Positions 4,721-18,640 of a DNA stretch of 64,000 nt are shown here, one piece after another. Both the position numbers and the translations under genes were made by a program. The DNA lies in contig CADEED010000002.1 in NCBI GenBank assembly GCA_902826225.1, positions 3,890 through 67,889 on the forward strand. The letters are read 5' to 3'. The notes below the pieces were generated by a model, which saw only the letters and a list, made by a program, of their open reading frames with translations, made no database searches and was not told the origin of the DNA. The DNA comes from an uncultured Pseudomonadota bacterium. GTDB taxonomy: Bacteria; Pseudomonadota; Gammaproteobacteria; Steroidobacterales; Steroidobacteraceae. The first letter of the stretch is position 1. Each line of letters starts with the position of its first letter.

Positions 4721-4738
4721 GTCGAACCTCGCGGATTG

Positions 4739-4755: not shown

Positions 4756-4912
4756 ATTCTTGTGCTGCTTCCAGCAGTGCCACCATCAGCGCATTCATCG
4801 GCGCGTCGATGCCGTGCTTGCGGCCGAGCCGGACGATGACGCCGTTGCGCGCATCGTATTCCATCGGGCGCTTCGCGCGGCGATCGGCCAGCATCGAGTC
4901 GATTCGTGGCGT
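4754..4912 (-). pseudogene. panE: 3' fragment of 2-dehydropantoate 2-reductase (last ~50 codons only)
   Basis: Minus-strand translation RIDSMLADRRAKRPMEYDARNGVIVRLGRKHGIDAPMNALMVALLEAAQE* matches the PanE/ApbA C-terminal motif (SML.D...GR.tEid..nG.vv..G...g...P.n). An in-frame TGA lies just upstream at about 4913-4915, and there is no N-terminal Rossmann part. Confidence 0.55.
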
Positions 4913-6660
4913 TCAACAGCGATGGCACCACGCGTTGGGAGACGCCGCTGCCCGTGTCGACGGGCTTCAAGTCGAGCAACGGACCAGTCGTTCTGGACGA
5001 TGCGACGATTCTCGTGCCCGCAACGCCGCAGGACTACATCATTCTCGGAACCGGACGAGGACTGGCGCCGACCGGATGGCCCGCGCGCGATCGCGATGTC
5101 CGCGGCTCACGCAATGCAGGAGGCGTCGCGCCGATGCCGCCGAACGCGGCACCATCCATCGTGATCACCGACCCGATCACAGTGTCCGTCAGTCTCGACA
5201 TCGGCGAACCGAAGACTGTACGCGCTCGGGCGTCGGATTCGGTTGAGGGAGACATCAGCGCCGCGATTCGCTGGACATCGTCGCTCGAAGGTGAGTTCGC
5301 GACGGGTCCAACGGCGTCCTTGACGGCTCTGGGTGCCGGGACGCACACCATCACGGCGACGGTGACGGACAGCCAGAACCTCTCGGACACGGCAACATTG
5401 CAAATGACCAAGGGGGCATTCGCGCCCGAGCTTTCACTCCTAACGCCTTGGTACGGGCAGACATTCGATGTCAGGCAGCAGATCAACTTTTCGGCGACGG
5501 CCGTGGATCGGGGTGATGGCTTCATTGGTCACCTGATTCGCTGGTCCTCGGATCGAGACGGGCAGATCGGGACAGGCGGGCAAGTAGCGCGCACCAATCT
5601 GACGGCCGGTTCACACACGATCACCGCGACCGTGACGGACAGCTTCGGCTTGACGGCCACGCGCACGGTGCCGATCGAGATCGTGCAGATGGCGCCGGTC
5701 ATCACGCACTCGCCCTATGACCAGGCCGAACTCGACCTCGGCGCGGCCGTGGAGTTCTTCGGGACGGCGACCGACTACGGCGATGGGGATGTGAGTGACA
5801 CCCTGGTCTGGACGTCCGATCGGGACGGCCTGTTGGGGAACGGGCAGACGTTCCTGATCTCGAGCCTCTCCGAGGGCACGCACGTCATCACGGTGACCGC
5901 GCAGGACGACAGCGGAACTGAGACTTCAACCCAGTTCACCGTCATTGTCCGGCCGACGCCACCGACCCTGCAGATCGAGTCCCCCGGCGATTGGAGCTAC
6001 TGGGAAGTCGGCTCGGACATCGGCTTCTACGGGACTGCCTACGACACGACCGATGGTGACATTAGCGCGATGATCCAGTGGTCGTCATTGCTCGACGGCC
6101 CAATTGGCACAGGTCAGGGCTATTTCTATCGGAACGATCTCAGCGTCGGCACGCACATCATCACGGCGACCGTGACGGATTCCGATGGGCAGACGGCGAC
6201 GATGGAGCGCTACATGACGGTCGCGGATCCCAACAACTCGGCGCCGTCCGTGTACATCTACTCGCCGGAGTGGGGCTCGCAGCATTCCGAAAACACCTCC
6301 ATCTCATTGCAGGCCGAGGCTTACGACTATGAGGAGGGGGAACTGACGAATATCCAATGGTCATCGGATCTGCAGGGGCCGCTTGGCGTCGGTGCGAGCA
6401 TAAGCACGTCTGCACTCGGGGTCGGCACGCATCAGATCAAGGCGCTGATCACCGACAGTTCGGGCGCGAAGGGGGTGTACGCAATCACCATCCACGTCGT
6501 GTCCTCTCTCACGTCGCTCGCTCGGGAAATCGCGCGCGAGTCGCTGGTCGCAAGCCGTGAGCCCGAACCTCGACCCGATTCGCCTCGTCTGCCCGAGCGC
6601 GTGGCGCTCGTGGCTGCCCTAACTTCAGAGTCCCGCAACTCGAGCGGAGGTGTGCAATGA
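4906..6660 (+). CDS. Ig-like (PKD/Big-like) tandem-repeat protein, apparently 5'-truncated; translationally coupled to the first toxin gene
   Basis: Five ~90 aa repeats with pattern D..DGD.S..I.W.S..DG.(L/I)G.G......L..G.H.ITATVTDS.G. The first ~80 aa look like the end of a PQQ-like beta-propeller (FNSDGTTRWETP...GWPARDRDVRGSRNAG). No signal peptide. The stop overlaps the next ATG (ATGA at 6657-6660). Confidence 0.7.
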   Translation: MAFNSDGTTRWETPLPVSTGFKSSNGPVVLDDATILVPATPQDYIILGTGRGLAPTGWPARDRDVRGSRNAGGVAPMPPNAAPSIVITDPITVSVSLDIGEPKTVRARASDSVEGDISAAIRWTSSLEGEFATGPTASLTALGAGTHTITATVTDSQNLSDTATLQMTKGAFAPELSLLTPWYGQTFDVRQQINFSATAVDRGDGFIGHLIRWSSDRDGQIGTGGQVARTNLTAGSHTITATVTDSFGLTATRTVPIEIVQMAPVITHSPYDQAELDLGAAVEFFGTATDYGDGDVSDTLVWTSDRDGLLGNGQTFLISSLSEGTHVITVTAQDDSGTETSTQFTVIVRPTPPTLQIESPGDWSYWEVGSDIGFYGTAYDTTDGDISAMIQWSSLLDGPIGTGQGYFYRNDLSVGTHIITATVTDSDGQTATMERYMTVADPNNSAPSVYIYSPEWGSQHSENTSISLQAEAYDYEEGELTNIQWSSDLQGPLGVGASISTSALGVGTHQIKALITDSSGAKGVYAITIHVVSSLTSLAREIARESLVASREPEPRPDSPRLPERVALVAALTSESRNSSGGVQ

Positions 6661-7547
6661 GCTTCCATGGAATGTTCACTCGCGGCCTTGTCGCCGCGCT
6701 GCTGCTGTGCCTGGGCTCGCAGGTCTTTGCCGCGCGCACGACGACCTACCTGCACAACGACGGTCTCGGCTCCGTCGTCGCCGCGACCAACCAGGCAGGC
6801 GCCGTGCTGTGGCGCAAGGACTACGCGCCGTTCGGCGAGCAGATCGACTCGACGCCTGACAGTGAGCGCACCGCCTACACGGGCAAGCAGCACGACGACG
6901 CCATCGGGCTCACCTACTTCGGTGGCCGGCACTTCGATCCTGAGCTCGGGCGATTCACCAGCGTCGACCCGGTCGCGTTCACCGAACAGAACGCGATGAG
7001 CTTCAACCGATACCTGTACGTGAACAACAACCCGTACAAGTATGTGGATCCGGATGGGGAGTTCCTGACCTACGTCGCGAAGTTCGTGATCGACGTGGGC
7101 ATCAACGTCGCGTTGAACTACGTCACAACCGGCGAGGCGAACCTCAAAGGTGCACTGAAGGAATCAGTAATCGGACTCATCAATCCGATCCCGGGCAAAA
7201 ATGCCGGCAAACTCGTGATGGCGATTGCCAAGGCGGGCAAGAAGGCGCCGGAGCCATCAACAGTATCCTCGGCCGCAAGGATACTCAATCCGGAGCAGGC
7301 CGCGAACCTCGCCAGGTTTGAGAAGAAACTTCCCGCTGGCGCTGGACCTACCAAAGTCCATGACTTACCTATTGGGGGCAAGGCCTTCCAGGCTGAAGTT
7401 CCAGGACGCGTCCCTGGGTCGAAGGCCGTTTACGAAAAGCAATTGGACGCGAACGGAATGACGACTGGCTACACAAAAACTACATATGCTCCGGCAGGCG
7501 ACATTGTTCATGTCAAAGACAAGATCACTGGTGAGACTTTCCCGTGA
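6657..7547 (+). CDS. mini-RHS polymorphic toxin 1: signal peptide + RHS core stub + helical linker + unassigned C-terminal domain
   Basis: GGAGG sits 6 nt upstream of the ATG. Signal peptide MSFHGMFTRGLVAALLLCLGSQVFA|A. YD/RHS core ...YTGKQHDDAIGLTYFGGRHFDPELGRFTSVDP...NRYLYVNNNPYKYVDPDGEF. Linker with TTGE ends at KKAPEP. The unique last ~96 aa have no motif I recognise. Confidence 0.85.
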   Translation: MSFHGMFTRGLVAALLLCLGSQVFAARTTTYLHNDGLGSVVAATNQAGAVLWRKDYAPFGEQIDSTPDSERTAYTGKQHDDAIGLTYFGGRHFDPELGRFTSVDPVAFTEQNAMSFNRYLYVNNNPYKYVDPDGEFLTYVAKFVIDVGINVALNYVTTGEANLKGALKESVIGLINPIPGKNAGKLVMAIAKAGKKAPEPSTVSSAARILNPEQAANLARFEKKLPAGAGPTKVHDLPIGGKAFQAEVPGRVPGSKAVYEKQLDANGMTTGYTKTTYAPAGDIVHVKDKITGETFP

Positions 7548-7888
7548 AAAGCAGAACTGATCTCCTTCTTGAGCTTCTCCACGCAAGCCGACCGGCTGAT
7601 CAGATCACGCGGGAGCTTGCCGCCCTTGGATGGGACAGCGACGCAGAGTTAGCGGTCATCACCAAGCGGGACATCGGCGAAATGCTGATGAAGTTCCTGA
7701 AAGGATCAGCCACAGGAAGTGCCGTGCAGGCTTGGGCTGAAGCAATCGAGAGCCGTGATGACGTGGGTCTTGAGCCCGGCTCGCAAGAGATTCTGAAACA
7801 AACTCTTTTCGAACTTGCCAACCCGGATCTCACTAGAAAGTTGACTCCGATCTTGGCGCAGAAGTTGATAGACGATTTGCGGCTTTAG
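7544..7888 (+). CDS. putative cognate immunity protein 1
   Basis: 114 aa, helical-looking. GTG start overlaps the toxin stop (GTGA). Lower GC than the backbone. Function assigned by position only. Confidence 0.65.
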   Translation: MKSRTDLLLELLHASRPADQITRELAALGWDSDAELAVITKRDIGEMLMKFLKGSATGSAVQAWAEAIESRDDVGLEPGSQEILKQTLFELANPDLTRKLTPILAQKLIDDLRL

Positions 7889-7910
7889 CTGCGCGTAGGC
7901 GGTGCAAACT

Positions 7911-8083
7911 ATCACCATCCACGTCGTGCACTCACTGACGTAGTTCGCTAGAGAGATCGCTGGAGAGTTGCCGGTCGCAAGCCGTGAGCCCGAACCTCGA
8001 CCCGATCCCCCTCGTCTGCCCGAACGCGTGGCGCTCGTGGCTGCCCTAACTTCAGAGTCCCGCAACTCGAGCGGAGGTGTGCA
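7911..8083 (+). pseudogene. decayed copy of the 3' end of the Ig-like repeat gene (equivalent to 6484-6656)
   Basis: Starts atcaccatccacgtcgtg as at 6484, diverges and picks up stops (tag), then is near-identical from ggtcgcaagccgtgagcccgaacctcgaccc through the GGAGG and ATG. Confidence 0.7.
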
Positions 8084-9010
8084 ATGAGCTTCCATGGAAT
8101 GTTCACTCGCGGCCTTGTCGCCGCGCTGCTGCTGTGCCTGGGCTCGCAGGTCTTTGCCGCGCGCACGACGACCTACCTGCACAACGACGGTCTCGGCTCC
8201 GTCGTCGCCGCGACCAACCAGGCAGGCGCCGTGCTGTGGCGCAAGGACTACGCGCCGTTCGGCGAGCAGATCGACTCGACGCCTGACAGTGAGCGCACCG
8301 CCTACACGGGCAAGCAGCACGACGACGCCATCGGGCTCACCTACTTCGGTGGCCGGCACTTCGATCCTGAGCTCGGGCGATTCACCAGCGTCGACCCGGT
8401 CGCGTTCACCGAACAGAACGCGATGAGCTTCAACCGATACCTGTACGTGAACAACAACCCGTACAAATATGTGGATCCGGATGGGGAGTTCCTGAACTTC
8501 GCGGCGAAGTTCGTGCTCGATGTGGGCGTGAACATGGCGATCAACTACCTCACCACGGGGGAGTTGAATGTATCCGGCGCGCTGAAGGACTCAGCAATCG
8601 GACTCCTCAATCCCGCGAAGACTACCGCCGGCATCGGAAAGCTGGGAATGGTTCTTTCCAAGGGAGGCAAGGTCACTCCCGACGCCGGCAGCATTGCATC
8701 AGCGACAAGCAAGGCTACCAAACCGGGTCGCGTGAAGAATCACCATCGAGAAGCACCCGACGCTGACGGTCGTCCACATACGTCGTACCGCACCGACGCC
8801 GAGGGACGGGTCACATCTTACGAGACGTACAACTATCCGTCGTCGGGAGTCGGCAAGCGTGTAGATGCAGTCGGGCCGCCGCATAATGGAATCCCGACAC
8901 CACATGTGGTCTCGACAAGCAAGCACGCGAACCCGAAGGACTCAACGAAGTTCTCGTTTAAGGAGACAGGAACGCGCCCAGCGCGGCCCGACGAGATACC
9001 ACGAAGATAG
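8084..9010 (+). CDS. mini-RHS polymorphic toxin 2: same N-terminal module, diverged linker, unassigned His-rich C-terminal domain
   Basis: First 136 aa identical to toxin 1. Linker is homologous but diverged (FAAKFVLDVGVNMAINYLTTGELNVSGALKDSAIGLLNP). C-terminal domain ...GRVKNHHREAPDADGRPHTSYRTDAEGRVTSYETYN...GPPHNGIPTPHVV... Confidence 0.85.
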   Translation: MSFHGMFTRGLVAALLLCLGSQVFAARTTTYLHNDGLGSVVAATNQAGAVLWRKDYAPFGEQIDSTPDSERTAYTGKQHDDAIGLTYFGGRHFDPELGRFTSVDPVAFTEQNAMSFNRYLYVNNNPYKYVDPDGEFLNFAAKFVLDVGVNMAINYLTTGELNVSGALKDSAIGLLNPAKTTAGIGKLGMVLSKGGKVTPDAGSIASATSKATKPGRVKNHHREAPDADGRPHTSYRTDAEGRVTSYETYNYPSSGVGKRVDAVGPPHNGIPTPHVVSTSKHANPKDSTKFSFKETGTRPARPDEIPRR

Positions 9011-9018
9011 GAGCGACC

Positions 9019-9462
9019 GTGAGGATCAGTGAGACTCAACTGGCTGGATTGGACGACTTTCATGCATGGAACGAAGGTAAGACGAGTGCAGAACGTATTT
9101 CGCTCCTGGACTACGCAACTTTTAACGCAACACCGGAGCTGCTTTTTGCTTTTGCAGCGCTGCTGCTCTGCGACCTCATCGAGGTGGAAGGTCACTACTT
9201 CATCGCCGATCGATTCAATCGTGTCTTTTACGAAAGATGGAAGCTGCAGCTGAATGACGGTAAGTCAGTCCAGCGAGTCATGAATCACCTGCACATCAGC
9301 ACACTGCTTCAAAACGCCGAACTCACTGACGACTTGGCCAAGTCCTGCGCCGACCTGATCGCATCTGCATGGTCCGAAGCTCATGCCGCGAAGGGCGTGG
9401 TTGGCGAGGTCCATGGGACTACTCTCGACGATCTTGCGGTTACGCTCGTAAATGGGCGCTAG
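9019..9462 (+). CDS. putative cognate immunity protein 2 (paralog at 2536-2973)
   Basis: 147 aa. GTG start 8 nt after the toxin stop, preceded by taGGAGcg. Lower GC. Confidence 0.7.
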   Translation: MRISETQLAGLDDFHAWNEGKTSAERISLLDYATFNATPELLFAFAALLLCDLIEVEGHYFIADRFNRVFYERWKLQLNDGKSVQRVMNHLHISTLLQNAELTDDLAKSCADLIASAWSEAHAAKGVVGEVHGTTLDDLAVTLVNGR

Positions 9463-9498
9463 TTGGCTTGAGGCTTTTGGGCCGAGTCGAATCAATCC

Positions 9499-9620
9499 TG
9501 CGGATGCGTAGCGTCCGGGTCAATGATCCGAAAAATCTTTCGGGTGCTTGCAGTTCCTGCAATCCCAGCAAGGGGAGCCGCAAACTTGGTTCGGAATGGA
9601 TAGCACCCAACAAAAGGTAG
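9499..9620 (+). pseudogene. 3' remnant of an HNH toxin domain, homologous to the end of toxin 6
   Basis: ...RSVRVNDPKNLSGACSSCNPSKGSRKLGSEWIAPNKR* aligns with ...RSARVNEPKNLSGACTSCNPSKGSRKLGSEWTAPKDR* at 17990-18103. There is no N-terminal module or start codon. Confidence 0.75.
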
Positions 9621-9623
9621 TTA

Positions 9624-10067
9624 ATGAGTCAAGCATCTTCGGTGTACGTTCGAAAGTACGGCAATCCTGACCGTACCGCCGAATACATTTCCCGCGGTGG
9701 CAGCCGCATACAGGTATTTAGATGGGACGCAGACAAGACAGGTGAAGGCGTCACCGTACATGCCACAGCGGGCGCGTCCGACGTGCTTGGTGATGAGACT
9801 CGGGCGTGCGAGTTCTTTGTCGGCTTATCGCCGCCAGTCGATGATATTGCCGAAGCAATCGCAGAAATCGCGCTGCGCGGGATCGGTGGTACCAGCATCC
9901 CCTCGTCTGGAGACACGACCACACTCCCTTTCCCTCTCTGGTCCGGCACCCTGATGCAGAGCGTACTTTTTACAGACGGTTCTGAACTCATTCCGAGCTA
10001 CACGGACTCGACCAAACGACTGGACTTCATCCAGTTGGTACCACTCTATGATTCAGAGCTTGAATAA
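9624..10067 (+). CDS. SUFU-like immunity paralog of 18107-18640, cut short by an in-frame TAA (homology continues in frame to 10157)
   Basis: About 75% identical by eye to immunity 6. TAA at 10065-10067 replaces the Phe codon of the paralog. The same frame then reads KKSNGDKALWREFELRAVAYWNSDRKPAW* ending at 10157, giving the same 534 nt total length as 18107-18640. Confidence 0.7.
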   Translation: MSQASSVYVRKYGNPDRTAEYISRGGSRIQVFRWDADKTGEGVTVHATAGASDVLGDETRACEFFVGLSPPVDDIAEAIAEIALRGIGGTSIPSSGDTTTLPFPLWSGTLMQSVLFTDGSELIPSYTDSTKRLDFIQLVPLYDSELE

Positions 10068-10316: not shown

Positions 10317-11246
10317 ATGAGATTTCATAAAATGATCTCCCGCGGCCTAGCCGCCGCGCTGCTGCTGTGCTTGGGCTCGCAAGCCTTCGCCGCGCGCACG
10401 ACGACCTACCTGCACAACGACGGTCTCGGCTCCGTCGTCGCCGCGACCAACCAGGCAGGCGCCGTGCTGTGGCGCAAGGACTACGCGCCGTTCGGCGAGC
10501 AGATCGACTCGACGCCTGACAGTGAGCGCACCGCCTACACGGGCAAGCAGCACGACGACGCCATCGGGCTCACCTACTTCGGTGGCCGGCACTTCGATCC
10601 TGAGCTCGGGCGATTCACCAGCGTCGACCCGGTCGCGTTCACCGAACAGAACGCGATGAGCTTCAACCGATACCTGTACGTGAACAACAACCCGTACAAG
10701 TACGTGGATCCGGATGGAGAGTTCCTCACCTACGTCGCGAAGTTCGTGATCGACGTGGGCATCAACGTCGCGCTGAACTACGTCACGACGGGTGAGGCGA
10801 ATCTCAAGGGGGCGCTCAAAGAGTCGGTCATCGGGCTCATCAATCCGATCCCAGGGAAGAACGCCGGCAAGTTGCTGATGGCGCTTGGTAAAGCGAGTAA
10901 GAAGGCACCCGATCCAAGGGCGACAATGGGAATCGCTTCGAAAGTCGACAATGCGGCTCCGGACTTCGATACAGCGAGGCGAGCAGCCTTTGACAAGGCA
11001 GGCATGACAGACCCATCAAGAGTTGTGTTCTCCAAGGTTGATCCAAAGACAGGTACAGTGGTTGAGTTCAAAGGGTCGGGAGGGGCGAAAGTTGGGTATG
11101 ACGGTCCGCACAAATCTCCGGGACCGCACCACGATACACAACACATCTCTTGGCAGACCGGTGGAAAACGCAGTCAGGGCGGTCGAGAACGCGGCAATGA
11201 ACCCTACTCTGGTCCTCAGCATCCTTCGCGACCAGACAGGAAATAG
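10317..11246 (+). CDS. mini-RHS polymorphic toxin 3: putative HNH/EndoVII-fold nuclease C-terminal domain
   Basis: Conserved N-terminal module and linker up to KKAPDP. C-terminal domain FDTARRAAFDKAGMTDPSRVVF...GYDGPHKSPGPHHDTQHISWQTGGK resembles His-rich HNH/EndoVII toxin families. That family call is tentative. Confidence 0.8.
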   Translation: MRFHKMISRGLAAALLLCLGSQAFAARTTTYLHNDGLGSVVAATNQAGAVLWRKDYAPFGEQIDSTPDSERTAYTGKQHDDAIGLTYFGGRHFDPELGRFTSVDPVAFTEQNAMSFNRYLYVNNNPYKYVDPDGEFLTYVAKFVIDVGINVALNYVTTGEANLKGALKESVIGLINPIPGKNAGKLLMALGKASKKAPDPRATMGIASKVDNAAPDFDTARRAAFDKAGMTDPSRVVFSKVDPKTGTVVEFKGSGGAKVGYDGPHKSPGPHHDTQHISWQTGGKRSQGGRERGNEPYSGPQHPSRPDRK

Positions 11247-11248
11247 AA

Positions 11249-12677: not shown

Positions 12678-12707
12678 GGAAACAAAACGGGGCGCCTAAG
12701 CGCCCCG
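12678..12707 (-). terminator. orphan rho-independent terminator, minus-strand orientation
   Basis: Stem CGGGGCGC/GCGCCCCG with a 4 nt loop. On the minus strand it is followed by TTTTGTTT. The hairpin is nearly identical to the cox terminator at 18696-18715. Confidence 0.5.
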
Positions 12708-12718
12708 TGAAGATCACC

Positions 12719-13095
12719 GCGGCCGTGGAGTTCTTCGGGACGGCGACCGACTACGGCGATGGGGATGTGAGTGACACCCTGGTCTGGACGTCCGATCGGG
12801 ACGGCCTGTTGGGGAACGGGCAGACGTTCCTGATCTCGAGCCTTTCCGAGGGCACGCACGTCATCACGGTGACGCGCAGGACGACAGCGGCACCGAGACC
12901 TCCGTTCAGTTCACCGTCATCGTCAGACCGACGCCGCCGACGGTCCAGATCGATTCCCCGACTGACTGGAGTTACTGGGAAGTCGGCTCGGACATCGGCT
13001 TCTACGGGACTGCCTACGACACAACTGACGGTGACATCAGCGCGATGCTCCAGTGGTCGTCGTTGATCGACGGCCCACTCGGCGCAGGTCAGGGC
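12719..13095 (+). pseudogene. internal fragment of the Ig-like repeat gene (equivalent to 5741-6118), frameshifted
   Basis: Near-identical to 5741 onward (AVEFFGTATDYGDGDVSDTLVWTSDRDGLLGNGQTF...). It is 1 nt shorter at about 12874 (gtgacgcgcag versus gtgaccgcgcag), which breaks the frame. Confidence 0.8.
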
Positions 13096-13381
13096 TACAG
13101 CCCGGACATCAGCGTATCGCTCGAAGACCGAAGTGTTTACATAGCATTCCATGCTGGAACTGCCGCTCAACGAAACGAACTCTTGAACGAGATAAGCAAA
13201 CAAGCGGCCAATGAATTTCGTGTCGAACTGCAATTCGAAGAGCTTTGATCTCCCTGCTCAAGACGTTTCACGCGATGGGTACGCGCCGACTCTGACTTGG
13301 GATGAATGGGCAGAAGCTAGTTCACCCAACGGCTTGGGGTCTTCCGACTGCTGAGCTTCGCATTGCTAGCGGAGGTGTGCG

Positions 13382-14233
13382 ATGAGCCTTCATGCGTTGA
13401 TCACTCGTGGCCTGGTCGCCGCGCTGCTGCTGTGCCTAGGCTCGCAGGTCTTTGCCGCGCGCACGACGACCTACCTGCACAACGACGGTCTCGGCTCCGT
13501 CGTCGCCGCGACCAACCAGGCAGGCGCCGTGCTGTGGCGCAAGGACTACGCGCCGTTCGGCGAGCAGATCGACTCGACGCCTGACAGTGAGCGCACCGCC
13601 TACACGGGCAAGCAGCACGACGACGCCATCGGGCTCACCTACTTCGGTGGCCGGCACTTCGATCCTGAGCTCGGGCGATTCACCAGCGTCGACCCGGTCG
13701 CGTTCACCGAACAGAACGCGATGAGCTTCAACCGATACCTGTACGTGAATAACAACCCGTACAAGTATGTGGATCCGGATGGGGAATTTCTGACCTACGT
13801 CGCGAAGTTCGTCATCGACGTGGGCATCAACGTCGCGTTGAACTATGTCACGACGGGGGAAGCGAACCTCAAAGGTGCACTGAAAGAATCGGTGATCGGA
13901 CTCATCAATCCGATTCCGGGAAAAAACGCCGGCAAGCTGCTGATGGCGCTCGGCAAAGCGAGCAAAAGGGCACCTGACCCGAGTGGAGCAGCGAGCTTTG
14001 CCGATAAGGCAAGCAAGGGTGGGGTGTTTGGCGGCATGACTCGAAAGGAGGCATACGGAAATCCTTCGAGTTCTGCGGCTGCAAAAAGGGCGCGGGAGAA
14101 CGCAGAAGGCACCGCGTGCCCCAGCTGCGGAAAAACCATGCGTTCGGGAACGGAATCAGCCCCTGTCGGATCACTTCAACGGGGCAGGCAAGACGATGAC
14201 GTCCACCGAGCGTCGACAGTATGCTCGTACTGA
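13382..14233 (+). CDS. mini-RHS polymorphic toxin 4: HNH-like C-terminal domain, apparently frameshifted (original end probably 14309)
   Basis: Conserved N-terminal module and linker up to KRAPDP. C-terminal domain contains CPSCGKTM. The expected DH motif and an ATGA overlap with the next ORF appear only after a frame change near the CCCC run at 14160-14163. Confidence 0.75.
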   Translation: MSLHALITRGLVAALLLCLGSQVFAARTTTYLHNDGLGSVVAATNQAGAVLWRKDYAPFGEQIDSTPDSERTAYTGKQHDDAIGLTYFGGRHFDPELGRFTSVDPVAFTEQNAMSFNRYLYVNNNPYKYVDPDGEFLTYVAKFVIDVGINVALNYVTTGEANLKGALKESVIGLINPIPGKNAGKLLMALGKASKRAPDPSGAASFADKASKGGVFGGMTRKEAYGNPSSSAAAKRARENAEGTACPSCGKTMRSGTESAPVGSLQRGRQDDDVHRASTVCSY

Positions 14234-14305
14234 AGGCGCCATCAACGGCGCTAAGTGCAAAGTCCGCCAGCAGAATGAAGGGCGCGAAATGCAGAAAGAA
14301 CATCG

Positions 14306-14878
14306 ATGACGATACAAGTTTATGAACGCTATCGTATTGCGTTGGATGGCAGGCTTTCAATTCTGGGGCTGTCAGCCAGTCGAGCGACAGCGTTCGGAGA
14401 GAAGGTTCAGAGCTTTGATGGCGACGTCATGGCAGTCCGATACTCGTCCAAGGACAGGTCCTTTCTTCTGTCGAGAGGATGTGCCAAATACCCAGGGGCG
14501 AATCGCGGATGGCGTGATGAGTTCTTGGTAGAGGAATCCGCCGGCGAAGAGTTCTCCCTCAGTTTGCTCGAGCTGACTGTCTACTACCATCTAACACGCC
14601 GTCCGGTGGAGCCTAGTGATGTTATCGAAATAGGGAGAATCGCGGGAAATGATGCAGGTTACTCACACGTCTACAGCTCGGTACCGTTCTTTCTCCCTGG
14701 CAGCGTGAATGCGATCCAGATGGAGGGTGCCAATTTTGCTTTGCAATGGTTGATGCCGATCTTTCCCCGAGAAGCCGCATTTATCGAAGCGAACGGGTCT
14801 GACAAGTTCGAGACGAGACTGAGATCATCACAGTATGACTTCTTTGACGCTCGTTTAGATCTCGACTACCTGAACTGA
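14306..14878 (+). CDS. putative cognate immunity protein 4 (SUFU-like C-terminal half by eye)
   Basis: 190 aa. The ATG overlaps the stop of the shifted toxin frame (ATGA at 14306-14309). The C-terminus ...FALQWLMPIFPREAAFIEANGSDKFETRL...D..R follows the SUFU-like pattern. Confidence 0.65.
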   Translation: MTIQVYERYRIALDGRLSILGLSASRATAFGEKVQSFDGDVMAVRYSSKDRSFLLSRGCAKYPGANRGWRDEFLVEESAGEEFSLSLLELTVYYHLTRRPVEPSDVIEIGRIAGNDAGYSHVYSSVPFFLPGSVNAIQMEGANFALQWLMPIFPREAAFIEANGSDKFETRLRSSQYDFFDARLDLDYLN

Positions 14879-14943
14879 GTTAGTGCGCATGTCGGACGCT
14901 GAGGACATTACAAACGGTAACGGCAACAAGTTGGCTTCGGACA

Positions 14944-15426
14944 ATGGCTGATGCGTCAGGATCGAAACAATGGCGAATCGGCGATGTTTTCACGATTCCA
15001 ACGAAGGACGGACAGCTCGCCATCGGGCAAATCGTTGGCGTGGAGCCCGACCTGCTCTCCAGTGCCACAGTGGCTCTGTTCGACGAGCGGCACGCATCCA
15101 TCGAAGGGGCTCGAATTCACGCATCGCTGTCACCCGAGAATCTATTCGCTGTGCTCTACGTGACGAAGAACCACCTGGACTCCGGTGACTGGAGAGTTGT
15201 CGACCATCGCAAAGTAGAGGTCGACCCGCGCACGAATCCGTTTGAGCACACGCGAAGCAAAGGATTCATTGGTGCGAAGGTGTTTGGTGCGGACATCGTC
15301 AACGAGTTCGTGAACGCGTTTTACGGGTTGGTTCCTTGGGATGACTGGAAGGACCCGAATTACCTGGATGCCCTGTTGATCTCGAAGGACGTAAAGCCCG
15401 TGGGGCGTTTGATATTCAAGAGCTGA
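14944..15426 (+). CDS. orphan immunity-like protein (Imm26-like by eye)
   Basis: 160 aa with no toxin upstream. WRIGDVFTIPTKDGQLAIGQIVG...PWDDWKDPNYLDALL resembles Imm26-type immunity proteins. Confidence 0.5.
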   Translation: MADASGSKQWRIGDVFTIPTKDGQLAIGQIVGVEPDLLSSATVALFDERHASIEGARIHASLSPENLFAVLYVTKNHLDSGDWRVVDHRKVEVDPRTNPFEHTRSKGFIGAKVFGADIVNEFVNAFYGLVPWDDWKDPNYLDALLISKDVKPVGRLIFKS

Positions 15427-15521
15427 CGTTGGGCCAGAGACTGACTGCTTTCGCGATCTTCGCCAAGATCGCTTGCGGCTATCCTGAACATAGAGTCTCG
15501 CGTCTCGAGCGGGGGTGTGCG

Positions 15522-16463
15522 ATGAGGTCTCATGAACTGATCACCCGCGGTCTCGTCGCCATGCTGCTGCTGAGCCTCGGCGCTCAAGCATTCGCAGCGC
15601 GCACGACGACCTACCTGCACAACGACGGTCTCGGCTCCGTCGTCGCCGCGACCAACCAGGCAGGCGCCGTGCTGTGGCGCAAGGACTACGCGCCGTTCGG
15701 CGAGCAGATCGACTCGACGCCTGACAGTGAGCGCACCGCCTACACGGGCAAGCAGCACGACGACGCCATCGGGCTCACCTACTTCGGTGGCCGGCACTTC
15801 GATCCTGAGCTCGGGCGATTCACCAGCGTCGACCCGGTCGCGTTCACCGAACAGAACGCGATGAGCTTCAACCGATACCTGTACGTGAACAACAACCCGT
15901 ACAAGTACGTGGATCCGGATGGAGAGTTCCTCACCTACGTCGCGAAGTTCGTGATCGACGTGGGCATCAACGTCGCGCTGAACTACGTCACGACGGGTGA
16001 GGCGAATCTCAAGGGGGCGCTCAAAGAGTCGGTCATCGGGCTCATCAATCCGATCCCAGGGAAGAACGCCGGCAAGTTGCTGATGGCGCTTGGTAAAGCG
16101 AGCAAGAAAGCGCCAGATCCCGGCGCGGCAACGGGGATCTTGGCAAACAAAGCGTCAGGAGATGCTTTCGCCCGAAAGGCAATCGCTTCGCTGAAAGAGA
16201 CACAGTCGGGCGTCGTTCAAGAAGTAACAGTTCGTACAAAAAGCGGCGTGCGGACGCGTCTCGACGCGCTTGGTAGAGATGCCTCGAGCGCTGTCCGATG
16301 TAGTGAGTGCAAGGGATCGGCTGCCGCGCGACTAACTACCAATCAAACGAAAGCGTTTCCTGAGATCGAGAAATCTGGCGCAGTTGTCGTTGGCAAAGGA
16401 AAGCCGGGCTTTCCGGGAGGTACCGTGATACCTCCAACCAAAGTCGATATCATCAGGCCATAG
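15522..16463 (+). CDS. mini-RHS polymorphic toxin 5: restriction-endonuclease-fold (PD-(D/E)xK-like) C-terminal domain
   Basis: Start taken at Met32 of ORF 15429..16463 (MRSHELITRGLVAMLLLSLGAQAFA|A), preceded by GGGGG. Conserved core and linker up to KKAPDP. C-terminal domain ...EVTVRTKSGVRTRLDALGRD...VRCSECKGSAAARLTTNQ gives a D...E-x-K signature. Confidence 0.8.
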   Translation: MRSHELITRGLVAMLLLSLGAQAFAARTTTYLHNDGLGSVVAATNQAGAVLWRKDYAPFGEQIDSTPDSERTAYTGKQHDDAIGLTYFGGRHFDPELGRFTSVDPVAFTEQNAMSFNRYLYVNNNPYKYVDPDGEFLTYVAKFVIDVGINVALNYVTTGEANLKGALKESVIGLINPIPGKNAGKLLMALGKASKKAPDPGAATGILANKASGDAFARKAIASLKETQSGVVQEVTVRTKSGVRTRLDALGRDASSAVRCSECKGSAAARLTTNQTKAFPEIEKSGAVVVGKGKPGFPGGTVIPPTKVDIIRP

Positions 16464-16475
16464 CGCGAGATACTT

Positions 16476-16811
16476 ATGGCGATCGACCAACCCGATAAAA
16501 TCGATGCGATTGGACTGGACAATCTCACTTCGAGGGTCGTGCTCACGATTGCCGACCACCTTCCATGGCTAGGTGACGCTGAGGCACATCGAAATCACCT
16601 GCGCGATAAGTTGAACACGTATTTGGCATTTACAGAAAGCGGGGAACTCGCCGAGGCATATCCTGACTCGAAAGGAAGATCAGTCACTATCAGCGTGATC
16701 GGCAAGTACGACCTTTCGCCAGTTGGGAAGGAGTTCTACGAGAATGCCAGCCAAGCACTCGCTAAATCGGGAATAGGCCTGGAGTTCAAGAAGCTCGGCG
16801 CATCTGAGTAG
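16476..16811 (+). CDS. putative cognate immunity protein 5
   Basis: 111 aa. ATG 12 nt after the toxin stop. Function assigned by position only. Confidence 0.65.
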   Translation: MAIDQPDKIDAIGLDNLTSRVVLTIADHLPWLGDAEAHRNHLRDKLNTYLAFTESGELAEAYPDSKGRSVTISVIGKYDLSPVGKEFYENASQALAKSGIGLEFKKLGASE

Positions 16812-16857
16812 TGTGCACGAACGTTCCGAAACGAGGACGGGGCGCTGAGGTGCTCCG

Positions 16858-17191
16858 TCGCGCATACGAAGAAGGCTACCTCACCGACATACATTGGTCG
16901 TCGAATCTCGAGGGACAGCTCGGAGTCGGTACGAGCATCGAGACCCCCGGACTCAGTGTCGGCACGCACGATCAAGGCGCTGATCACCGACAGTTCGGGC
17001 GCGAAGGGGGTGTACGCAATCACCATCCACGTCGTGTCCTCTCTCACGTCGCTCGCTCGGGAAATCGCGCGCGAGTCGCTGGTCGCAAGCCGTGAGCCCG
17101 AACCTCGACCCGATTCGCCTCGTCTGCCCGAGCGCGTGGCGCTCGTGGCTGCCCTAACTTCAGAGTCCCGCAACTCGAGCGGAGGTGTGCA
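16858..17191 (+). pseudogene. 3' fragment of the Ig-like repeat gene (last repeat plus tail), frameshifted
   Basis: AYEEGYLTDIHWSSNLEGQLGVGTSIETPGLSVGTH is a diverged version of repeat 5. It is 2 nt shorter at about 16968 (gcacgatcaagg versus gcatcagatcaagg). After that it is identical to 6437-6656 up to the next ATG. Confidence 0.8.
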
Positions 17192-18103
17192 ATGAGCTTC
17201 CATGGAATGTTCACTCGCGGCCTTGTCGCCGCGCTGCTGCTGTGCCTGGGCTCGCAGGTCTTTGCCGCGCGCACGACGACCTACCTGCACAACGACGGTC
17301 TCGGCTCCGTCGTCGCCGCGACCAACCAGGCAGGCGCCGTGCTGTGGCGCAAGGACTACGCGCCGTTCGGCGAGCAGATCGACTCGACGCCTGACAGTGA
17401 GCGCACCGCCTACACGGGCAAGCAGCACGACGACGCCATCGGGCTCACCTACTTCGGTGGCCGGCACTTCGATCCTGAGCTCGGGCGATTCACCAGCGTC
17501 GACCCGGTCGCGTTCACCGAACAGAACGCGATGAGCTTCAACCGATACCTGTACGTGAACAACAACCCGTACAAGTATGTGGATCCGGATGGGGAGTTCC
17601 TGACCTACGTCGCGAAGTTCGTGATCGACGTGGGCATCAACGTCGCGTTGAACTACGTCACAACCGGCGAGGCGAACCTCAAAGGTGCACTGAAGGAATC
17701 AGTAATCGGACTCATCAATCCGATTCCGGGAAAGAACGCCGGCAAACTCTTGATGGCGCTCGGCAAGGCGAGCAAGAAAGCGCCAAGTCCAAGCGCGGCC
17801 GGAAAGAGCGTCATTCCTCCGTACTCGCGAAACAAATACGACAGGCTTACGGAGAAGGAAAGAAACGACGTCTTAAAGAAGGACCCGAACTGCGTGTACT
17901 GTAACGACCAGCCTTCCAAGACCGTAGATCACGTGAGATCGCAAAAGGAAGATTGGGTCAGCGGAGGATACAAAGACACGCAGGCAGTGCGTAGCGCGAG
18001 AGTCAATGAGCCGAAGAATCTTTCAGGCGCCTGCACGTCCTGCAATCCCAGCAAGGGAAGCCGGAAACTTGGTTCTGAATGGACAGCTCCTAAAGATAGG
18101 TAG
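17192..18103 (+). CDS. mini-RHS polymorphic toxin 6: HNH endonuclease C-terminal domain
   Basis: N-terminal 136 aa identical to toxin 1. C-terminal domain CVYCNDQPSKTVDHVRS...NEPKNLSGACTSCNPSKGSRKLG is a classic HNH signature (CxxC..DH..N..CxxCNxxKG). Confidence 0.88.
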   Translation: MSFHGMFTRGLVAALLLCLGSQVFAARTTTYLHNDGLGSVVAATNQAGAVLWRKDYAPFGEQIDSTPDSERTAYTGKQHDDAIGLTYFGGRHFDPELGRFTSVDPVAFTEQNAMSFNRYLYVNNNPYKYVDPDGEFLTYVAKFVIDVGINVALNYVTTGEANLKGALKESVIGLINPIPGKNAGKLLMALGKASKKAPSPSAAGKSVIPPYSRNKYDRLTEKERNDVLKKDPNCVYCNDQPSKTVDHVRSQKEDWVSGGYKDTQAVRSARVNEPKNLSGACTSCNPSKGSRKLGSEWTAPKDR

Positions 18104-18106
18104 GCG

Positions 18107-18640
18107 ATGAATCAAGCATCAGCTCTTTATGACCGAAAATACGGCAGCCCTGATCGGACGGCGGAATTCACCTCGCGCAACGGCTGCCGTATCTATGTCT
18201 TCAAGTGGAATGCCGACAAGACCAGTGAGGGCGTCACCGTGTATGCCACGGGCGGAGCATCTGACGTATTAGGCGATGAAAGTCGATCTTGCGAGTTCTT
18301 TATCGGCTTATCGCCTCCGGTTGACGACATTGCCGATTCACTCGCTGAACTCGCGCTGCACGGAATCGGCAGCGCTACCGTGCCCAGCTTTGGAGACACG
18401 ACCACGCTTTCCTTTCCCCTATGGTCGGGCACTCCCATGCAGACCTTTCTCTATACCGACGGTTCTGGGCTCATCCCGAGTTATACCGACTCGACTAAGA
18501 GAGTCGATTTCATTCAACTGGTACCGCTCTTTGATTCGGAGCTGGAGTTCAAGAAGAAGAATGGAGAGAAAGCGCTTTGGCGCGAATTCGAGTCACGGGC
18601 CGTCGCGTACTGGGATTCCGATCGCGCACCGGCGTGGTAG
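18107..18640 (+). CDS. putative cognate immunity protein 6 (SUFU-like)
   Basis: 177 aa. ATG 3 nt after the toxin stop. GVTVYATGGASDVLGD...CEFFIGLSP...VDFIQLVPLFDSELEFKKKNGEKAL follows the bacterial SUFU-like immunity pattern. Confidence 0.7.
   Translation: MNQASALYDRKYGSPDRTAEFTSRNGCRIYVFKWNADKTSEGVTVYATGGASDVLGDESRSCEFFIGLSPPVDDIADSLAELALHGIGSATVPSFGDTTTLSFPLWSGTPMQTFLYTDGSGLIPSYTDSTKRVDFIQLVPLFDSELEFKKKNGEKALWREFESRAVAYWDSDRAPAW

Follow-up and report, generated by a model that had tools for sequence, protein, structure and literature searches.

A Shell-less Array of Six Rhs-Core Toxin Cassettes as Candidate Exchangeable Small Subunits of a Two-Gene, Sec-Exported Rhs System

The window (the whole 64-kb stretch of DNA analysed here) carries an array of six plus-strand toxin ORFs, T1 to T6, each with an immunity-type ORF (I1 to I6) downstream, and the reading that we favor, with moderate confidence, is that the cassettes are exchangeable small subunits of a two-gene, Sec-exported Rhs system, left without a shell here after a deletion. 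The initial annotation had regarded the locus as an array of polymorphic toxins and immunity genes, which is borne out by a true Rhs core, by recognised immunity families, and by three toxin/immunity pairs that co-occur elsewhere. The further idea of self-sufficient "mini-RHS" proteins whose locus had lacked an rhs gene all along, however, is not supported as it stands, in view of the two-gene form found in relatives and the shell-gene remnant of 584 codons in front of T1.

Layout of the array

2536..2964 (+): paralogue of I2 located beyond the array, with leuA and an amidohydrolase gene on either side (BLASTP 51% identity, 146 aa; zero Pfam matches)
~4757..4905 (-): panE 3' fragment, ~49 codons plus stop, IDSMLADRRAKRPMEYDARNGVIVRLGRKHGIDAPMNALMVALLEAAQE (translation); presumably PanE, as recognised by the C-terminus of that family
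4906..6660 (+): large shell-subunit gene remnant, 5'-truncated, 584 codons (Pfam PKD/Big_7/HYR; L081 alignment)
6657..7547 (+): T1, with signal peptide, YD/core plug, linker, and C-terminal toxin
7544..7888 (+): I1, presumed cognate immunity gene by position, 4-nt overlap with T1; no family match in the profile search
7891..8083 (+): large-subunit gene 3' tail, repeated, preceding T2 (D11-D13, 86-92% identity; 182 nt of homology upstream)
8084..9010 (+): T2, with common head up to aa 137, diverged linker allele, and Ntox24 toxin
9019..9462 (+): I2, presumed immunity gene by position; paralogue at 2536-2964
~9474..9620 (+): HNH toxin remnant, final 48 codons (67% identity with the C-terminus of T6)
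9624..10067 (+): orphan immunity gene of the SUFU type, sharing 76% identity with I6
10317..11246 (+): T3, Ntox47 toxin (1.4e-23)
11249..11680 (+): I3 immunity gene, which in L066 and L028 also lies 3' of T3-like toxins
12032..12529 (+): orphan DUF4265 immunity-type gene (profile match); a 47% homologue in L002 is in the immunity position after a small Rhs ORF
12687..12708 (-): terminator-like hairpin, near copy of the array-end hairpin
12718..13097 (+): large-subunit gene internal fragment, matching 5742-6122 (repeat families D15, D16) and continuing into a 67-codon hybrid ORF at 13045-13248
13382..14309 (+): T4, frameshifted toxin gene (annotated frame 13382-14233; +1 frame to 14309)
14306..14878 (+): I4, SUFU-type immunity gene (5.1e-6, 26.9 bits, cut-off 25)
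14944..15426 (+): orphan Imm26 immunity gene (1.4e-6)
15522..16463 (+): T5 toxin (in the Acidobacteria MAG L039, a 64% homologue precedes a homologue of I5)
16476..16811 (+): I5, DUF6572 immunity-type gene (7.9e-28)
16811..17195 (+): large-subunit gene 3' end copy (aa 470-584), preceding T6; its final ~225 nt have 100% identity with 6435-6660
17192..18103 (+): T6, HNH nuclease toxin (62% homologue plus immunity gene in L003)
18107..18640 (+): I6, SUFU-type immunity gene (6.7e-11)
18696..18715 (-): terminator-like hairpin at the boundary of the array and the convergent cox operon
18737-19621 (-): COX3 of the cox operon, convergent with the array

All six ORFs begin on the plus strand where the initial annotation had placed them, and the truncated panE fragment and the terminator-like hairpin at the array edges, the HNH toxin remnant, and the three toxin-less immunity-like ORFs were likewise recovered. 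An immunity ORF had been described within -4 to +12 nt of each toxin, which holds in general but not for T4-I4, where a frameshift in T4 widens the gap to 72 nt; indeed, the +1 frame of T4 overlaps the I4 ATG as ATGA, and the intact relative P0038 is collinear with both T4 pieces. The C-termini of T1-T6 are, as claimed, mutually unrelated, with no BLASTP matches among them at E<=1e-2. The C-terminus of T2 is Ntox24 (1.8e-10), and that of T6, scanned by itself, is HNH (8.7e-5, 23 bits against a cut-off of 21.4); profile searches assigned no family to those of T1, T4, and T5, and the D..ExK restriction-endonuclease-like domain named at first for one C-terminus is a putative assignment. To judge from profile matches, the downstream ORFs belong to recognised immunity families (SUFU, DUF6572, DUF4265, and Imm26), and three pairs co-occur in unrelated genomes: namely, T5/I5 in L039, T3/I3 in L066 and L028, and T6/I6 in L003.

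The common head and its large partner gene

The N-terminus of T1-T6, MSFHGMFTRGLVAALLLCLGSQVFA followed by AR, comprises a basic n-region, a hydrophobic core (Kyte-Doolittle maximum window at aa 10-25), and V-x-A, and then the nearly invariant Ala25. The Rhs core in the shared N-terminus, on which the initial annotation had been staked beforehand, was found in all six ORFs as a TIGR03696 (Rhs_assc_core) match at aa 56-134 (E 2.5e-22 to 1.1e-21, 77-79 bits against a cut-off of 32.5 bits), and the final 120 positions of the TEN_YD-shell profile were also matched by all of them. Two DPxx motifs are present, and their residues D104, D131, and G134 are invariant among 100 family members. While the Sec-type signal peptide, YD segments, and core were as first described, the shared part is not confined to ~136 aa: it extends over ~197 aa in T1 and T3-T6, and T2 alone diverges at aa 137 into a homologous linker. 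The mature N-terminal ~110 aa, furthermore, align to the last ~105 residues before the cleavage site of solved shells (TcdB2-TccC3, 2047-2157; YenC2, 630-689 of 690; Tse5, 1019-1120 of 1121; 8h8a, 1056-1151 of 1152), and this pre-cleavage region of Rhs shells is an embedded C-terminal plug/aspartyl protease (PMC8636562). T6 modelled alone (AF2) was not compact, with a pTM of 0.28, and the fold of the model matched exclusively Rhs, Tc, and teneurin shells.

There are 204 close relatives, and nearly all of the 120 listed are 290-330 aa long, with many different toxin Pfams. In a profile search at E<=1e-30, the ~300-aa protein family comprised 6,704 clusters (50% identity), the best 150 of which are all 164-485 aa in length and have matches that start by residue 55, in most cases by residue 20. 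Among the 57 loci with at least 4 kb of upstream DNA, at least 35 carry, directly ahead of the first copy, a homologue of the shell region of L081. These upstream proteins, of 900 to 3,500 aa, are of the Sec-exported type with their own signal peptides and carry RHS_repeat (e.g., 5.8e-50, 3.1e-56) and DUF6531, and profile scans detected no Rhs-associated core in them. The first gene in relatives accordingly reads as a signal peptide, a DUF6531 plug, and a ~1,250-aa YD barrel; TSP3, beta-propeller, and Ig domains are present in some of its products and absent in others, and in many relatives >1,000 aa of propeller/Ig domains separate the barrel from the gene boundary. The spacing from the shell stop to the next start is -4 nt (ATGA overlap) in 12 of 33 loci and <=41 nt in the others. 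In the fused Rhs L034, moreover, aa 247-996 match aa 522-1252 of the L081 large subunit, and aa 989-1091 match aa 31-134 of the L081 small subunit. In such alignments, shell and small protein tile a canonical fused Rhs with zero residues missing and few overlapping, the small protein being equivalent to the C-terminal plug/aspartyl-protease domain plus the toxin; in relatives, the small protein is normally the product of the second gene of a two-gene Rhs, a form that is widespread yet barely studied. An adjacent shell gene is absent in ~14 of the 57 loci, including arrays such as L055 and L056 and the lone gene in L082, and the small protein may therefore act alone or with a distant partner.

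The initial annotation covered the interval of the 584-codon ORF at 4906-6660 but did not include this ORF, which is key to the locus. Its frame is open from 4840, and its TGA overlaps the ATG of T1; it encodes a beta-propeller end, five PKD/Ig-like domains, and a conserved C-terminal tail, and aligns solely to aa ~2174-2782 of the 2,782-aa L081 shell protein. The gene order in the syntenic relative L081 is leuA, the shell gene, one cassette, one immunity gene, COX3, and CtaG, and the window has the same flanks (leuA ... COX3). The remnant directly abuts the truncated panE fragment, with the junction at ~4905, and the best explanation that the sequence offers is a single deletion that would have removed the 5' part of panE together with ~2,170 codons of the large-subunit gene, most of its length, and would thereby have left the six cassettes "headless". 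Beyond the remnant, no shell homologue was found in the window, and no shell, T6SS, or CDI gene was seen among the ten large ORFs scanned outside the array, in agreement with the absence of T6SS, CDI, and full-length rhs reported at first. Together with comparative genomics, the remnant shifts the reading from mini-Rhs to the small subunit of a two-gene Rhs.

Proposed mechanism, cassette turnover, and alternatives

In the mechanism that we propose, the small subunit would be ordered as a cleavable signal peptide, the last YD hairpins, a plug/aspartyl autoprotease ending in DPDGEF, a ~60-aa linker, and a ~100-aa toxin, with a presumably cytoplasmic immunity protein; the large subunit, encoded immediately upstream in intact relatives and probably translationally coupled, has no C-terminal plug of its own. 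Both subunits would be exported unfolded, and the barrel would then be corked in trans by the small subunit, enclosing the toxin. Against this step stands that the Rhs and Tc proteins known so far take up their toxin while the shell is folding, and the long propeller/Ig stretch between barrel and gene boundary in many relatives complicates the geometry of corking. The target cell might be bound via the propeller/Ig part, autoproteolysis after DPDGEF would release the linker and toxin, and the linker may assist membrane passage. New cassettes would recombine in via the large-gene 3' end and the constant head, with older ones shifting downstream. If still active, the headless cassettes would need a shell gene at another site of the genome; alternatively, they may persist chiefly because of their immunity genes and as a reserve for recombination.

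Direct repeats include six 300-nt copies, with 82-100% identity, over the 5' parts of T1-T6, and those of T1, T2, and T6 are 100% identical across 300 nt. The window possibly comes from a metagenome bin, and 300-nt repeats of 100% identity could mislead an assembler. Fragments of the large-gene 3' end stand ahead of T2, T4, and T6, as they do in L079 and L005, and GGAGGTGTGC(A/G)ATG or a one-base variant, corresponding to the final ~20 nt of the large gene, ribosome-binding site included, is kept in all six cassettes. The core (codons 26-136) has been homogenised, as dS is 0-0.07 and dN is 0. The linker, of ~60 aa and helical, is strongly conserved; for codons 137-197, eight of the ten pairwise comparisons within T1 and T3-T6 give a dS of 0.5-1.2, a dN of 0.007-0.037, and a dN/dS of 0.006-0.07. 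In Steroidobacter gossypii, the sole copy ends prematurely after the linker. A 9.9-kb uncultured Steroidobacter contig, L001, has a cassette order unlike that of the window: a T5 head is joined to a T3 toxin, and a DUF4265 orphan is followed by the large-gene 3' end and then T1.

Counter to the two-gene reading, five of the six toxins in the window have stayed intact despite the loss of the shell gene. One alternative, which we consider rather unlikely, is that the array is a decaying relic whose toxins have been undelivered since that loss, with immunity genes protecting against neighbours that still deploy these toxins and cassettes donated by recombination. Such decay would be consistent with a shell gene that is down to 584 codons and has neither signal peptide nor native start, with the frameshift in T4, with an HNH toxin reduced to 48 codons beside its intact immunity gene, and also with the three orphan immunity genes, the I2 paralogue outside the array, and the truncated copy in S. 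gossypii. Nonetheless, five toxin ORFs have intact signal peptides and ribosome-binding sites, the core is protein-identical (dN = 0) across the six copies, and a second shell gene may exist beyond the 64-kb window.

It is also unlikely that the ~300-aa proteins are autonomous secreted toxins, which would be exported by Sec, cross the outer membrane through T2SS or vesicles, and need no partner for entry into targets; the Rhs core would then serve just as a self-cleaving release module, and the giant protein upstream an unrelated or optional adhesin. Each cassette does have its own ATG, ribosome-binding site, and signal peptide, five window toxins are intact without a shell gene, and the strong purifying selection on the linker fits an entry domain. 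The autonomy of the small proteins may indeed hold in some cases, since about a quarter of the related loci have no adjacent shell gene and L082 has a lone copy. A core-less shell gene, however, directly precedes the first copy in at least 35 of the 57 loci, and the two together cover a canonical Rhs without gaps; the conserved part is equivalent to the plug, which is enclosed by the barrel in every solved structure, T6 modelled singly showed no compact fold, and Bcn-A (see below) requires ORFA and ORF4 together. That the six-fold array or the shell-truncating junction is an assembly artefact from near-identical repeats in a metagenome bin is very improbable: the identical copies in T1, T2, and T6 and the different order of the same parts in L001 would suit it, but the junction at ~4905 joins two unique sequences (panE fragment and propeller end), the toxin and immunity sequences are unique to each cassette, arrays of 3-5 copies recur in independent genomes, long-read chromosomes included, and L001 has private substitutions and is hence a different allele, not simply an alternative path through the same reads.

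Comparison with known systems

As candidate small subunits of a two-gene Rhs, the window proteins share with the Rhs/YD-repeat toxins (e.g., Photorhabdus laumondii Rhs1, Pseudomonas RhsA/Tse5; PMC8636562) the Rhs-associated core, the two DPxx motifs, a variable C-terminal toxin right after the motif, and an immunity gene downstream; the toxin families Ntox24, Ntox47, and HNH are common to other polymorphic toxins. Here, however, the barrel and the plug-plus-toxin are split over two genes, with just the last ~110 aa of the shell in the window ORFs, both proteins have Sec signal peptides instead of PAAR/VgrG-binding N-termini, and no T6SS genes were found nearby. In the Tc (ABC) toxins, the YD cocoon of TcB-TcC is likewise made from two polypeptides, and the toxin-bearing TcC carries the core protease; several alternative TcC proteins from different loci can load one TcB (PMC11067744). 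TcC nonetheless gives ~680 aa of the shell against ~110 aa from the small subunit here, and Tc proteins have no Sec signal peptides and require TcA; no TcA/TcB signature domains were found in the window.

Orphan rhs-CT/rhsI modules are also tandem, displaced toxin-immunity pairs with core homology usable for recombination and with toxin remnants and toxin-less immunity genes interspersed, whereas every cassette in the window has kept the whole gene, ATG, ribosome-binding site, and signal peptide included. Surveys today assign Rhs proteins of <=350 aa to orphans by length, and the ~300-aa family is therefore hidden in the orphan bin. Neisseria MafB toxins are built along similar lines: a Sec signal peptide precedes an N-terminal domain that stays constant, the C-terminal toxin is polymorphic and has its immunity gene, the arrays contain alternative cassettes, and the outer-membrane route is unclear. 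Their constant domain, however, is DUF1020 instead of the Rhs core, and the partner encoded upstream, MafA, is a lipoprotein where the present system has a YD shell (PMC4436062).

Among experimentally studied systems, Bcn-A of Xanthomonas perforans is probably the nearest. It needs ORFA (a 1,398-aa RHS protein) and ORF4 (290 aa), with ORF5 giving immunity; its activity is found in the supernatant above 100 kDa, depends on T2SS, and is abolished in an xpsD mutant (PMC7259588). By the description in that paper, ORF4 is a putative member of the present family; a peptide search with its published segments matched nothing. In Bcn-A, the shell and ORF4 are separated by two further small ORFs of 124 and 100 aa, one cassette takes the place of an array, and the authors regarded ORFA as the toxin and ORF4 as an accessory protein (PMC7259588). 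X. axonopodis (L084) likewise has a split pair whose small ORF carries a signal peptide. ORFA is a large Sec-type RHS protein like the large subunit here, ORF4 has a signal peptide, similarity to Rhs/WapA/Tc, and hydrophobic helices at aa 148-198, where the linker of the present proteins lies, and the 145-aa ORF5 has an immunity role, as proposed for the downstream genes of the array.

Six small Rhs ORFs with a common head

Six ORFs of 283-313 codons (T1-T6) were found on the + strand at 4,906-18,640, between the panE fragment and the cox side and at the starts claimed in the initial annotation; their 5' parts form six-copy direct repeats with 82-100% identity. The G+C content of the array is 0.53-0.60 vs about 0.65 in the flanks. 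In the following, the shell (or large subunit) denotes the big RHS-repeat protein encoded upstream of a small Rhs gene, and the small subunit is the protein composed of a plug, a linker, and a toxin.

Shell-gene remnant and small Rhs ORFs (coordinates, strand, description)
4906-6660, +, shell-gene remnant ORF, 584 codons with PKD/Ig-like domains; its TGA overlaps the ATG of T1
6657-7547, +, T1, small Rhs ORF
8084-9010, +, T2, small Rhs ORF
10317-11246, +, T3, small Rhs ORF
13382-14233, +, T4, small Rhs ORF, frameshifted
15522-16463, +, T5, small Rhs ORF
17192-18103, +, T6, small Rhs ORF

In the protein alignment, residues 26-136 were identical in all six ORFs, in line with the common head of about 136 aa described initially, but the near-identity was found to extend further: namely, residues 137-197 (the linker) are near-identical in five ORFs, with the T2 version diverged yet homologous, and similarity among T1-T6 is absent only beyond about residue 197. 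The Rhs core profile on which the initial annotation had staked its assignment (TIGR03696/IPR022385) matched aa 56-134 in all six (E of about 5e-22, 77-79 bits; cut-off, 32.5 bits). T1-T6 also match the teneurin YD-shell profile (TEN_YD-shell, 909 positions) over its last 120 positions; coverage is limited to positions 786-907, at about 20 bits and below the cut-off of 50. No match to PF05593 (RHS repeat) was detected in T1-T6, and a full-length YD barrel has no counterpart in these 283-313-aa proteins. As annotated, the N terminus has the features of a Sec-type signal peptide (a basic residue, a hydrophobic core, and V-F-A followed by a nearly invariant alanine), and the ATG of all six is preceded 8 nt upstream by GGAGG (GGGGG in T5). 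A lipoprotein was considered and rejected because there is no lipobox (LLLC has Leu at -1). Two DPxG-type aspartyl autoprotease motifs, DPVAF (104) and DPDGEF (131), are located before the variable C terminus, and D104, D131, and G134 are invariant across 100 family sequences. The AF2 model of T6 alone (100 sequences) was of low confidence (pLDDT 64, pTM 0.28) with no compact fold, and Foldseek with this model retrieved only Rhs, teneurin, and Tc shells at low TM-scores.

When the 198-aa constant part was used as a query, 204 proteins were found; among the 120 listed, nearly all were 290-330 aa, shared the head, and differed widely in the toxin domain (among others, EndoU, deaminase, GH-E, REase-9, ART, Tae4, and NucA/B). 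A profile search against 1.84 billion cluster representatives gave 6,704 clusters at E<=1e-30, and the best 150 of them were all 164-485 aa, with the match beginning within residue 55 and mostly in the first 20; complete small Rhs genes with a signal peptide hence amount to at least 6,704 sequence clusters. In our scan of GTDB genomes, the closest loci were those of Steroidobacter (89% identity), and the family ranged over Gamma- and Betaproteobacteria and also Planctomycetota, Acidobacteria, and Syntrophobacterales. Tandem arrays with three to five copies are common among these loci.

Shell genes in relatives and in the window

The first copy in each of the related loci usually has a very large ORF ahead on the same strand. 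These upstream ORFs have their own signal peptides and carry RHS_repeat (5.8e-50 in the Methylovorus locus L003 and 3.1e-56 in L038) and DUF6531, to which TSP3 repeats, PQQ-type beta-propellers, and Ig/PKD domains are added in the Steroidobacter-like clade. The Rhs core is absent from the upstream ORFs, and the core HMM matches the small ORFs only. In the related locus L081, the shell protein is 2,782 aa long, and its N-terminal 1,300 aa align essentially at full length to the upstream ORFs in about 35 loci. For 57 loci, 4 kb or more of upstream DNA was available; a shell homologue is directly upstream in 35 of them, about 5 more have large ORFs with the shell part beyond the fetched flank, and about 14 have none. 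Of 33 cases, 12 have a stop-to-start spacing of -4 nt (ATGA or GTGA), and in the others the spacing does not exceed 41 nt; in the gene calls of close relatives, shells of 2,291, 2,662, 2,782, and 3,516 aa each end 4 nt inside the small gene. In some lineages (L045 at 4317-10873, L059, and L077), the gene boundary comes right after the barrel, and the Ig/propeller part is N-terminal on the core-toxin ORF (888, 708, and 1,441 aa, respectively); the cut point is therefore not fixed.

Alignment with a single-chain Rhs of 1,267 aa from a Pseudoxanthomonas MAG (L034) illustrates the relation of the two subunits. The large subunit of L081 (aa 522-1252) aligns to aa 247-996 of this protein and the small subunit (aa 31-134) to aa 989-1091, and the L003 pair tiles it likewise (568-1214 of 1,218 in the large and 63-349 in the small subunit). 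By alignment, the pair of large and small subunits would be a canonical Rhs cut in two. In TccC3, YenC2, Tse5, and T6SS Rhs shells, the mature small subunit aligns with the stretch of roughly 105 residues that ends at the autoproteolytic site, and it also aligns with the equivalent part of teneurins; its similarity to PDB entries is confined to the plug. The C-terminal plug of Rhs1, "deeply embedded" in the barrel, is an aspartyl protease with two DPLGL motifs, the second of which precedes the cleavage site (PMC8636562). Both positions are kept in the small subunits as DPVAF and DPDGEF, where cleavage is predicted, while the spacer between the motifs is 22 aa in T1-T6 vs 17 in Rhs1 (PMC8636562).

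In the window, a core-less RHS-repeat shell gene with a signal peptide is not found directly upstream of T1, and only its last 584 codons are left; this ORF opens the interval of the initial annotation, which did not describe it. The remnant aligns to the L081 protein only from about residue 2174 to the end. Just upstream, panE is reduced to about 49 codons of its 3' end on the opposite strand, and an amidohydrolase gene comes next. At L081, leuA on one side and COX3/CtaG on the other flank an intact shell gene with a single cassette and a single immunity gene; the flanks in the window are the same (leuA at 612-2282 and COX3 at 18737-19621), and the L081 small subunit is 71% identical to the constant region in the window. 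Because panE and the shell gene are cut at the same point, the simplest explanation of their truncation is one deletion, which would have taken from the shell gene the whole barrel and most of the propellers along with the signal peptide and the N-plug. The window contains a degenerate, shell-less example of the probable split Rhs, seen after the loss of the shell. Read-through of a stop codon joining the 584-codon ORF to T1 was rejected, since the frames of the two ORFs differ, their ends overlap as ATGA, and the ATG begins a signal peptide. No further shell homologue was found within the 64-kb window. Two long ORFs at 37174-39192 and 44108-46324 (both +; 672 and 738 aa), the latter overlapped by a minus-strand ORF at 44147-46330, gave no Pfam match at E<=1e-3 and may be either wrong-frame ORFs of a high-G+C genome or uncharacterized genes.

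We consider it probable, albeit far from certain, that the array belongs to such a split Rhs system. In the mechanism we propose, both subunits would be exported via Sec; the small subunit would complete and plug the barrel with the toxin inside, and the complex of shell and plug would leave the cell. The propeller/Ig region would then bind the target, and autoproteolysis after DPDGEF would release the linker and toxin. A more specific version, "One bottle, many corks," is put forward only tentatively: an empty YD barrel might be exported via Sec and then filled and sealed in trans outside the cytoplasm by any of several plug-toxins, each translated independently. If this is true, a single shell gene would deploy the whole toxin array at once, toxins would be added by inserting a 1.5-kb cassette, and the system would be the first Rhs with post-translocational, combinatorial encapsulation; the Bcn-A bacteriocin and thousands of genes filed as "orphan modules" would also receive a new interpretation. 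Rhs toxins are among the commonest bacterial weapons, and it is still unclear how the toxin enters and exits the shell. With the shell and the plug-plus-toxin as separately exported proteins, loading could be studied by mixing purified parts, and a split system would explain how one shell serves a changing arsenal.

Toxins, immunity genes, and growth of the array

The C-termini of T1-T6 are mutually unrelated, as was claimed (no BLASTP match among them at E<=1e-2). T2, T3, and T6 belong to Ntox24, Ntox47, and HNH, respectively; no Pfam family was matched by the C-termini of T1, T5, and repaired T4 even at E<=10, and the 63-aa linker queried alone against Pfam gave nothing meaningful. The D..ExK and GH-E/HNH-like assignments suggested for these toxins are putative. 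Among the ORFs in the immunity position (I1-I6), I6 and I4 as well as an orphan at 9624 are SUFU-type, and I5 is DUF6572; the orphans at 14944 and 12032 are Imm26 and DUF4265, and I1, I2, and I3 had no family match. T5/I5 also occur together in an Acidobacteria MAG (L039), T3/I3 in L066 and L028, and T6/I6 in Methylovorus (L003); their putative cognate pairing is supported by this co-occurrence. The proposal of a small immunity ORF close behind each toxin stands for its families and recurrent pairs; the exception in spacing is T4, the annotated frame of which ends at 14233, 72 nt short of I4, whereas its +1 frame runs to 14309 with a TGA overlapping the ATG of I4, and an intact relative (P0038) covers both pieces in a single frame. 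The toxin remnant and three toxin-less immunity-type ORFs were recovered as well: at 9474-9620, only the final 48 codons of a T6-like HNH toxin are left, with its immunity gene retained, and the orphans are those at 9624, 12032, and 14944. Given the TIGR03696 core in all six, the unrelated C-termini, the immunity ORFs, and the pairs co-occurring elsewhere, we regard the observation as real. Across the deletion junction from the array, an ORF at 2536-2964 (+) between leuA and the amidohydrolase gene is 51% identical to I2 and may be an old orphan immunity gene of the original locus.

The frameshift in T4, the HNH toxin remnant, and the orphan immunity genes would also be consistent with the array being a relic kept for its immunity genes, which we consider unlikely. 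The intact ORFs in the window and the existence of solo loci would fit small proteins that act alone, which is in our opinion quite unlikely. That parts of the array are mis-assembled appears very improbable. Caught after the loss of its shell gene, the locus is a natural test of whether cassettes live on their own.

Elsewhere in the family, the sole small Rhs gene of Steroidobacter gossypii S1-65 (L004, 9731-10636), in which the family similarity ends just past the linker, also has no shell gene beside it and is another decaying example in Steroidobacter. A lone small Rhs gene in L082 (10001-10936), again with no adjoining shell gene, is about 4 kb from a 3,395-aa ABC_toxin_N/TcA_TcB_BD gene (15074-20936), a layout that possibly links the family to Tc-type A subunits.

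In favor of the split-Rhs reading, the array retains traces of how it may have grown. About 20 nt from the very end of the shell gene, with the GGAGG box (GGGGG in T5), are preserved in each cassette, and longer pieces lie ahead of three cassettes:

Shell-gene pieces ahead of cassettes
ahead of T2, shell 3'-end copy of about 190 nt
ahead of T4, 12718-13097, internal shell-gene piece
ahead of T6, shell 3'-end copy of 385 nt, of which the last 225 nt are identical

Shell 3' fragments are found ahead of cassettes likewise in L079 and L005. The retained ends, the three longer fragments, and the same pattern in these two loci fit a model in which new cassettes are recombined in via the 3' end of the shell gene and the constant head, and older ones are displaced downstream. 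The core codons 26-136 are homogenized (dS 0-0.07, dN 0). In the linker codons 137-197, dS is 0.5-1.2 with dN of 0.007-0.037 (dN/dS 0.006-0.07; 8 of 10 pairs among T1 and T3-T6); silent sites are nearly saturated in most pairs, and the protein has barely changed. The linker would therefore travel with the toxin and have an important function of its own. A hairpin, AAACGGGGCGCC(T/G)AAGCGCCCCG, is present where the array ends, at 18693-18715, and inside it at 12684-12708, just before the internal shell-gene fragment; the inner hairpin, at 12687-12708, is a near copy of the terminal one. This recurrence suggests that the array is a concatenation of two or three sub-loci or, alternatively, that a small element has been repeated. 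Our scan for promoters and terminators gave no more sites than in shuffled sequence.

A 67-codon ORF at 13045-13248 (+) takes its first 18 codons from the shell-gene fragment, and the only match to its remainder is an identical copy in L001 (1-9880), a MAG contig of uncultured Steroidobacter sp. RBC007. This contig has the window cassettes in another order (the T5 head on the T3 toxin, I3, the DUF4265 orphan, a shell-gene 3' end, T1, I1, and T2) and private substitutions in the constant region, and would be a natural recombinant or else a consensus sequence from a mixture of strains.

Comparison with known systems

T1-T6 share with Rhs/YD-repeat toxins the core, the two DPxG-type motifs, and the variable toxin followed by an immunity gene, whereas the long YD array found in the same protein there is missing. 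T6SS-delivered Rhs proteins have a PAAR/VgrG-binding N terminus, an Eag chaperone, and T6SS genes in the neighborhood; T1-T6 begin with a signal peptide instead, and no T6SS component was found among ten large flanking ORFs scanned. CDI and Maf systems were rejected, as DUF1020 (MafB), the TPS domain, and FHA repeats with CdiB gave no Pfam match. The initial statement that T6SS, CDI, and full-length rhs are absent holds for the array and the flanking ORFs scanned, but it had overlooked the shell-gene remnant. A classical orphan rhs-CT module lacks the N-terminal region and is not a complete gene, a definition fitting only the 9474-9620 remnant; T1-T6 are complete with an ATG, a GGAGG-type box, and a signal peptide. 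A recent Rhs survey classes everything of 350 aa or less as "orphan module" by length, so that small Rhs genes are counted as silent orphans. The expressed toxin repertoire is probably larger than such surveys indicate, and they would miss a way of delivery independent of T6SS, probably via T2SS.

Polymorphic Rhs toxins, orphan arrays, and two-chain YD cocoons are already known. We found no description in the literature of a Sec-exported Rhs with the plug-plus-toxin as a separate complete signal-peptide gene, in arrays, and none of a "split Rhs" apart from Tc toxins and Bcn-A, a bacteriocin locus of Xanthomonas perforans. Zhang et al. (2012) list "T2SS + RHS" architectures, and the accessible part of that paper does not mention a separate plug gene. 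A structural precedent exists in Tc toxins, namely a cocoon of two chains in which alternative toxin subunits share one partner (PMC11067744); the SpvB and TcdB mid domains and the gating propeller of the Tc BC component, and TcA, were not found in the array or scanned flanks.

Bcn-A is likened to the window system by its published description, not by sequence, and is the sole experimental anchor. The link is literature-based, since the two published ORF4 helix sequences gave no match when searched as peptides and a Xanthomonadales-specific profile search gave only 104-247-aa core fragments with no X. perforans entry. A split as in Bcn-A, with a signal peptide on the small ORF, is seen in Xanthomonas axonopodis pv. 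fascicularis (L084, 4629-11685): a 1,754-aa RHS protein with a signal peptide is paired with a small ORF cut short by an IS element, and an inverted canonical 1,286-aa Rhs with DUF4329 is 2 kb away. In Bcn-A itself, ORFA is a 1,398-aa RHS protein, ORF4 (290 aa) has a signal peptide, similarity to WapA, RhsA, and Tc toxin, and two predicted membrane helices at the position of the linker, and immunity is encoded by ORF5; the system requires ORFA, ORF2, and ORF4, and its activity is found in the supernatant at above 100 kDa and disappears in a T2SS mutant (PMC7259588). T1-T6 have the composition of the small ORF in a Bcn-A-like split Rhs, namely a signal peptide, a plug/core, a linker, and a toxin.
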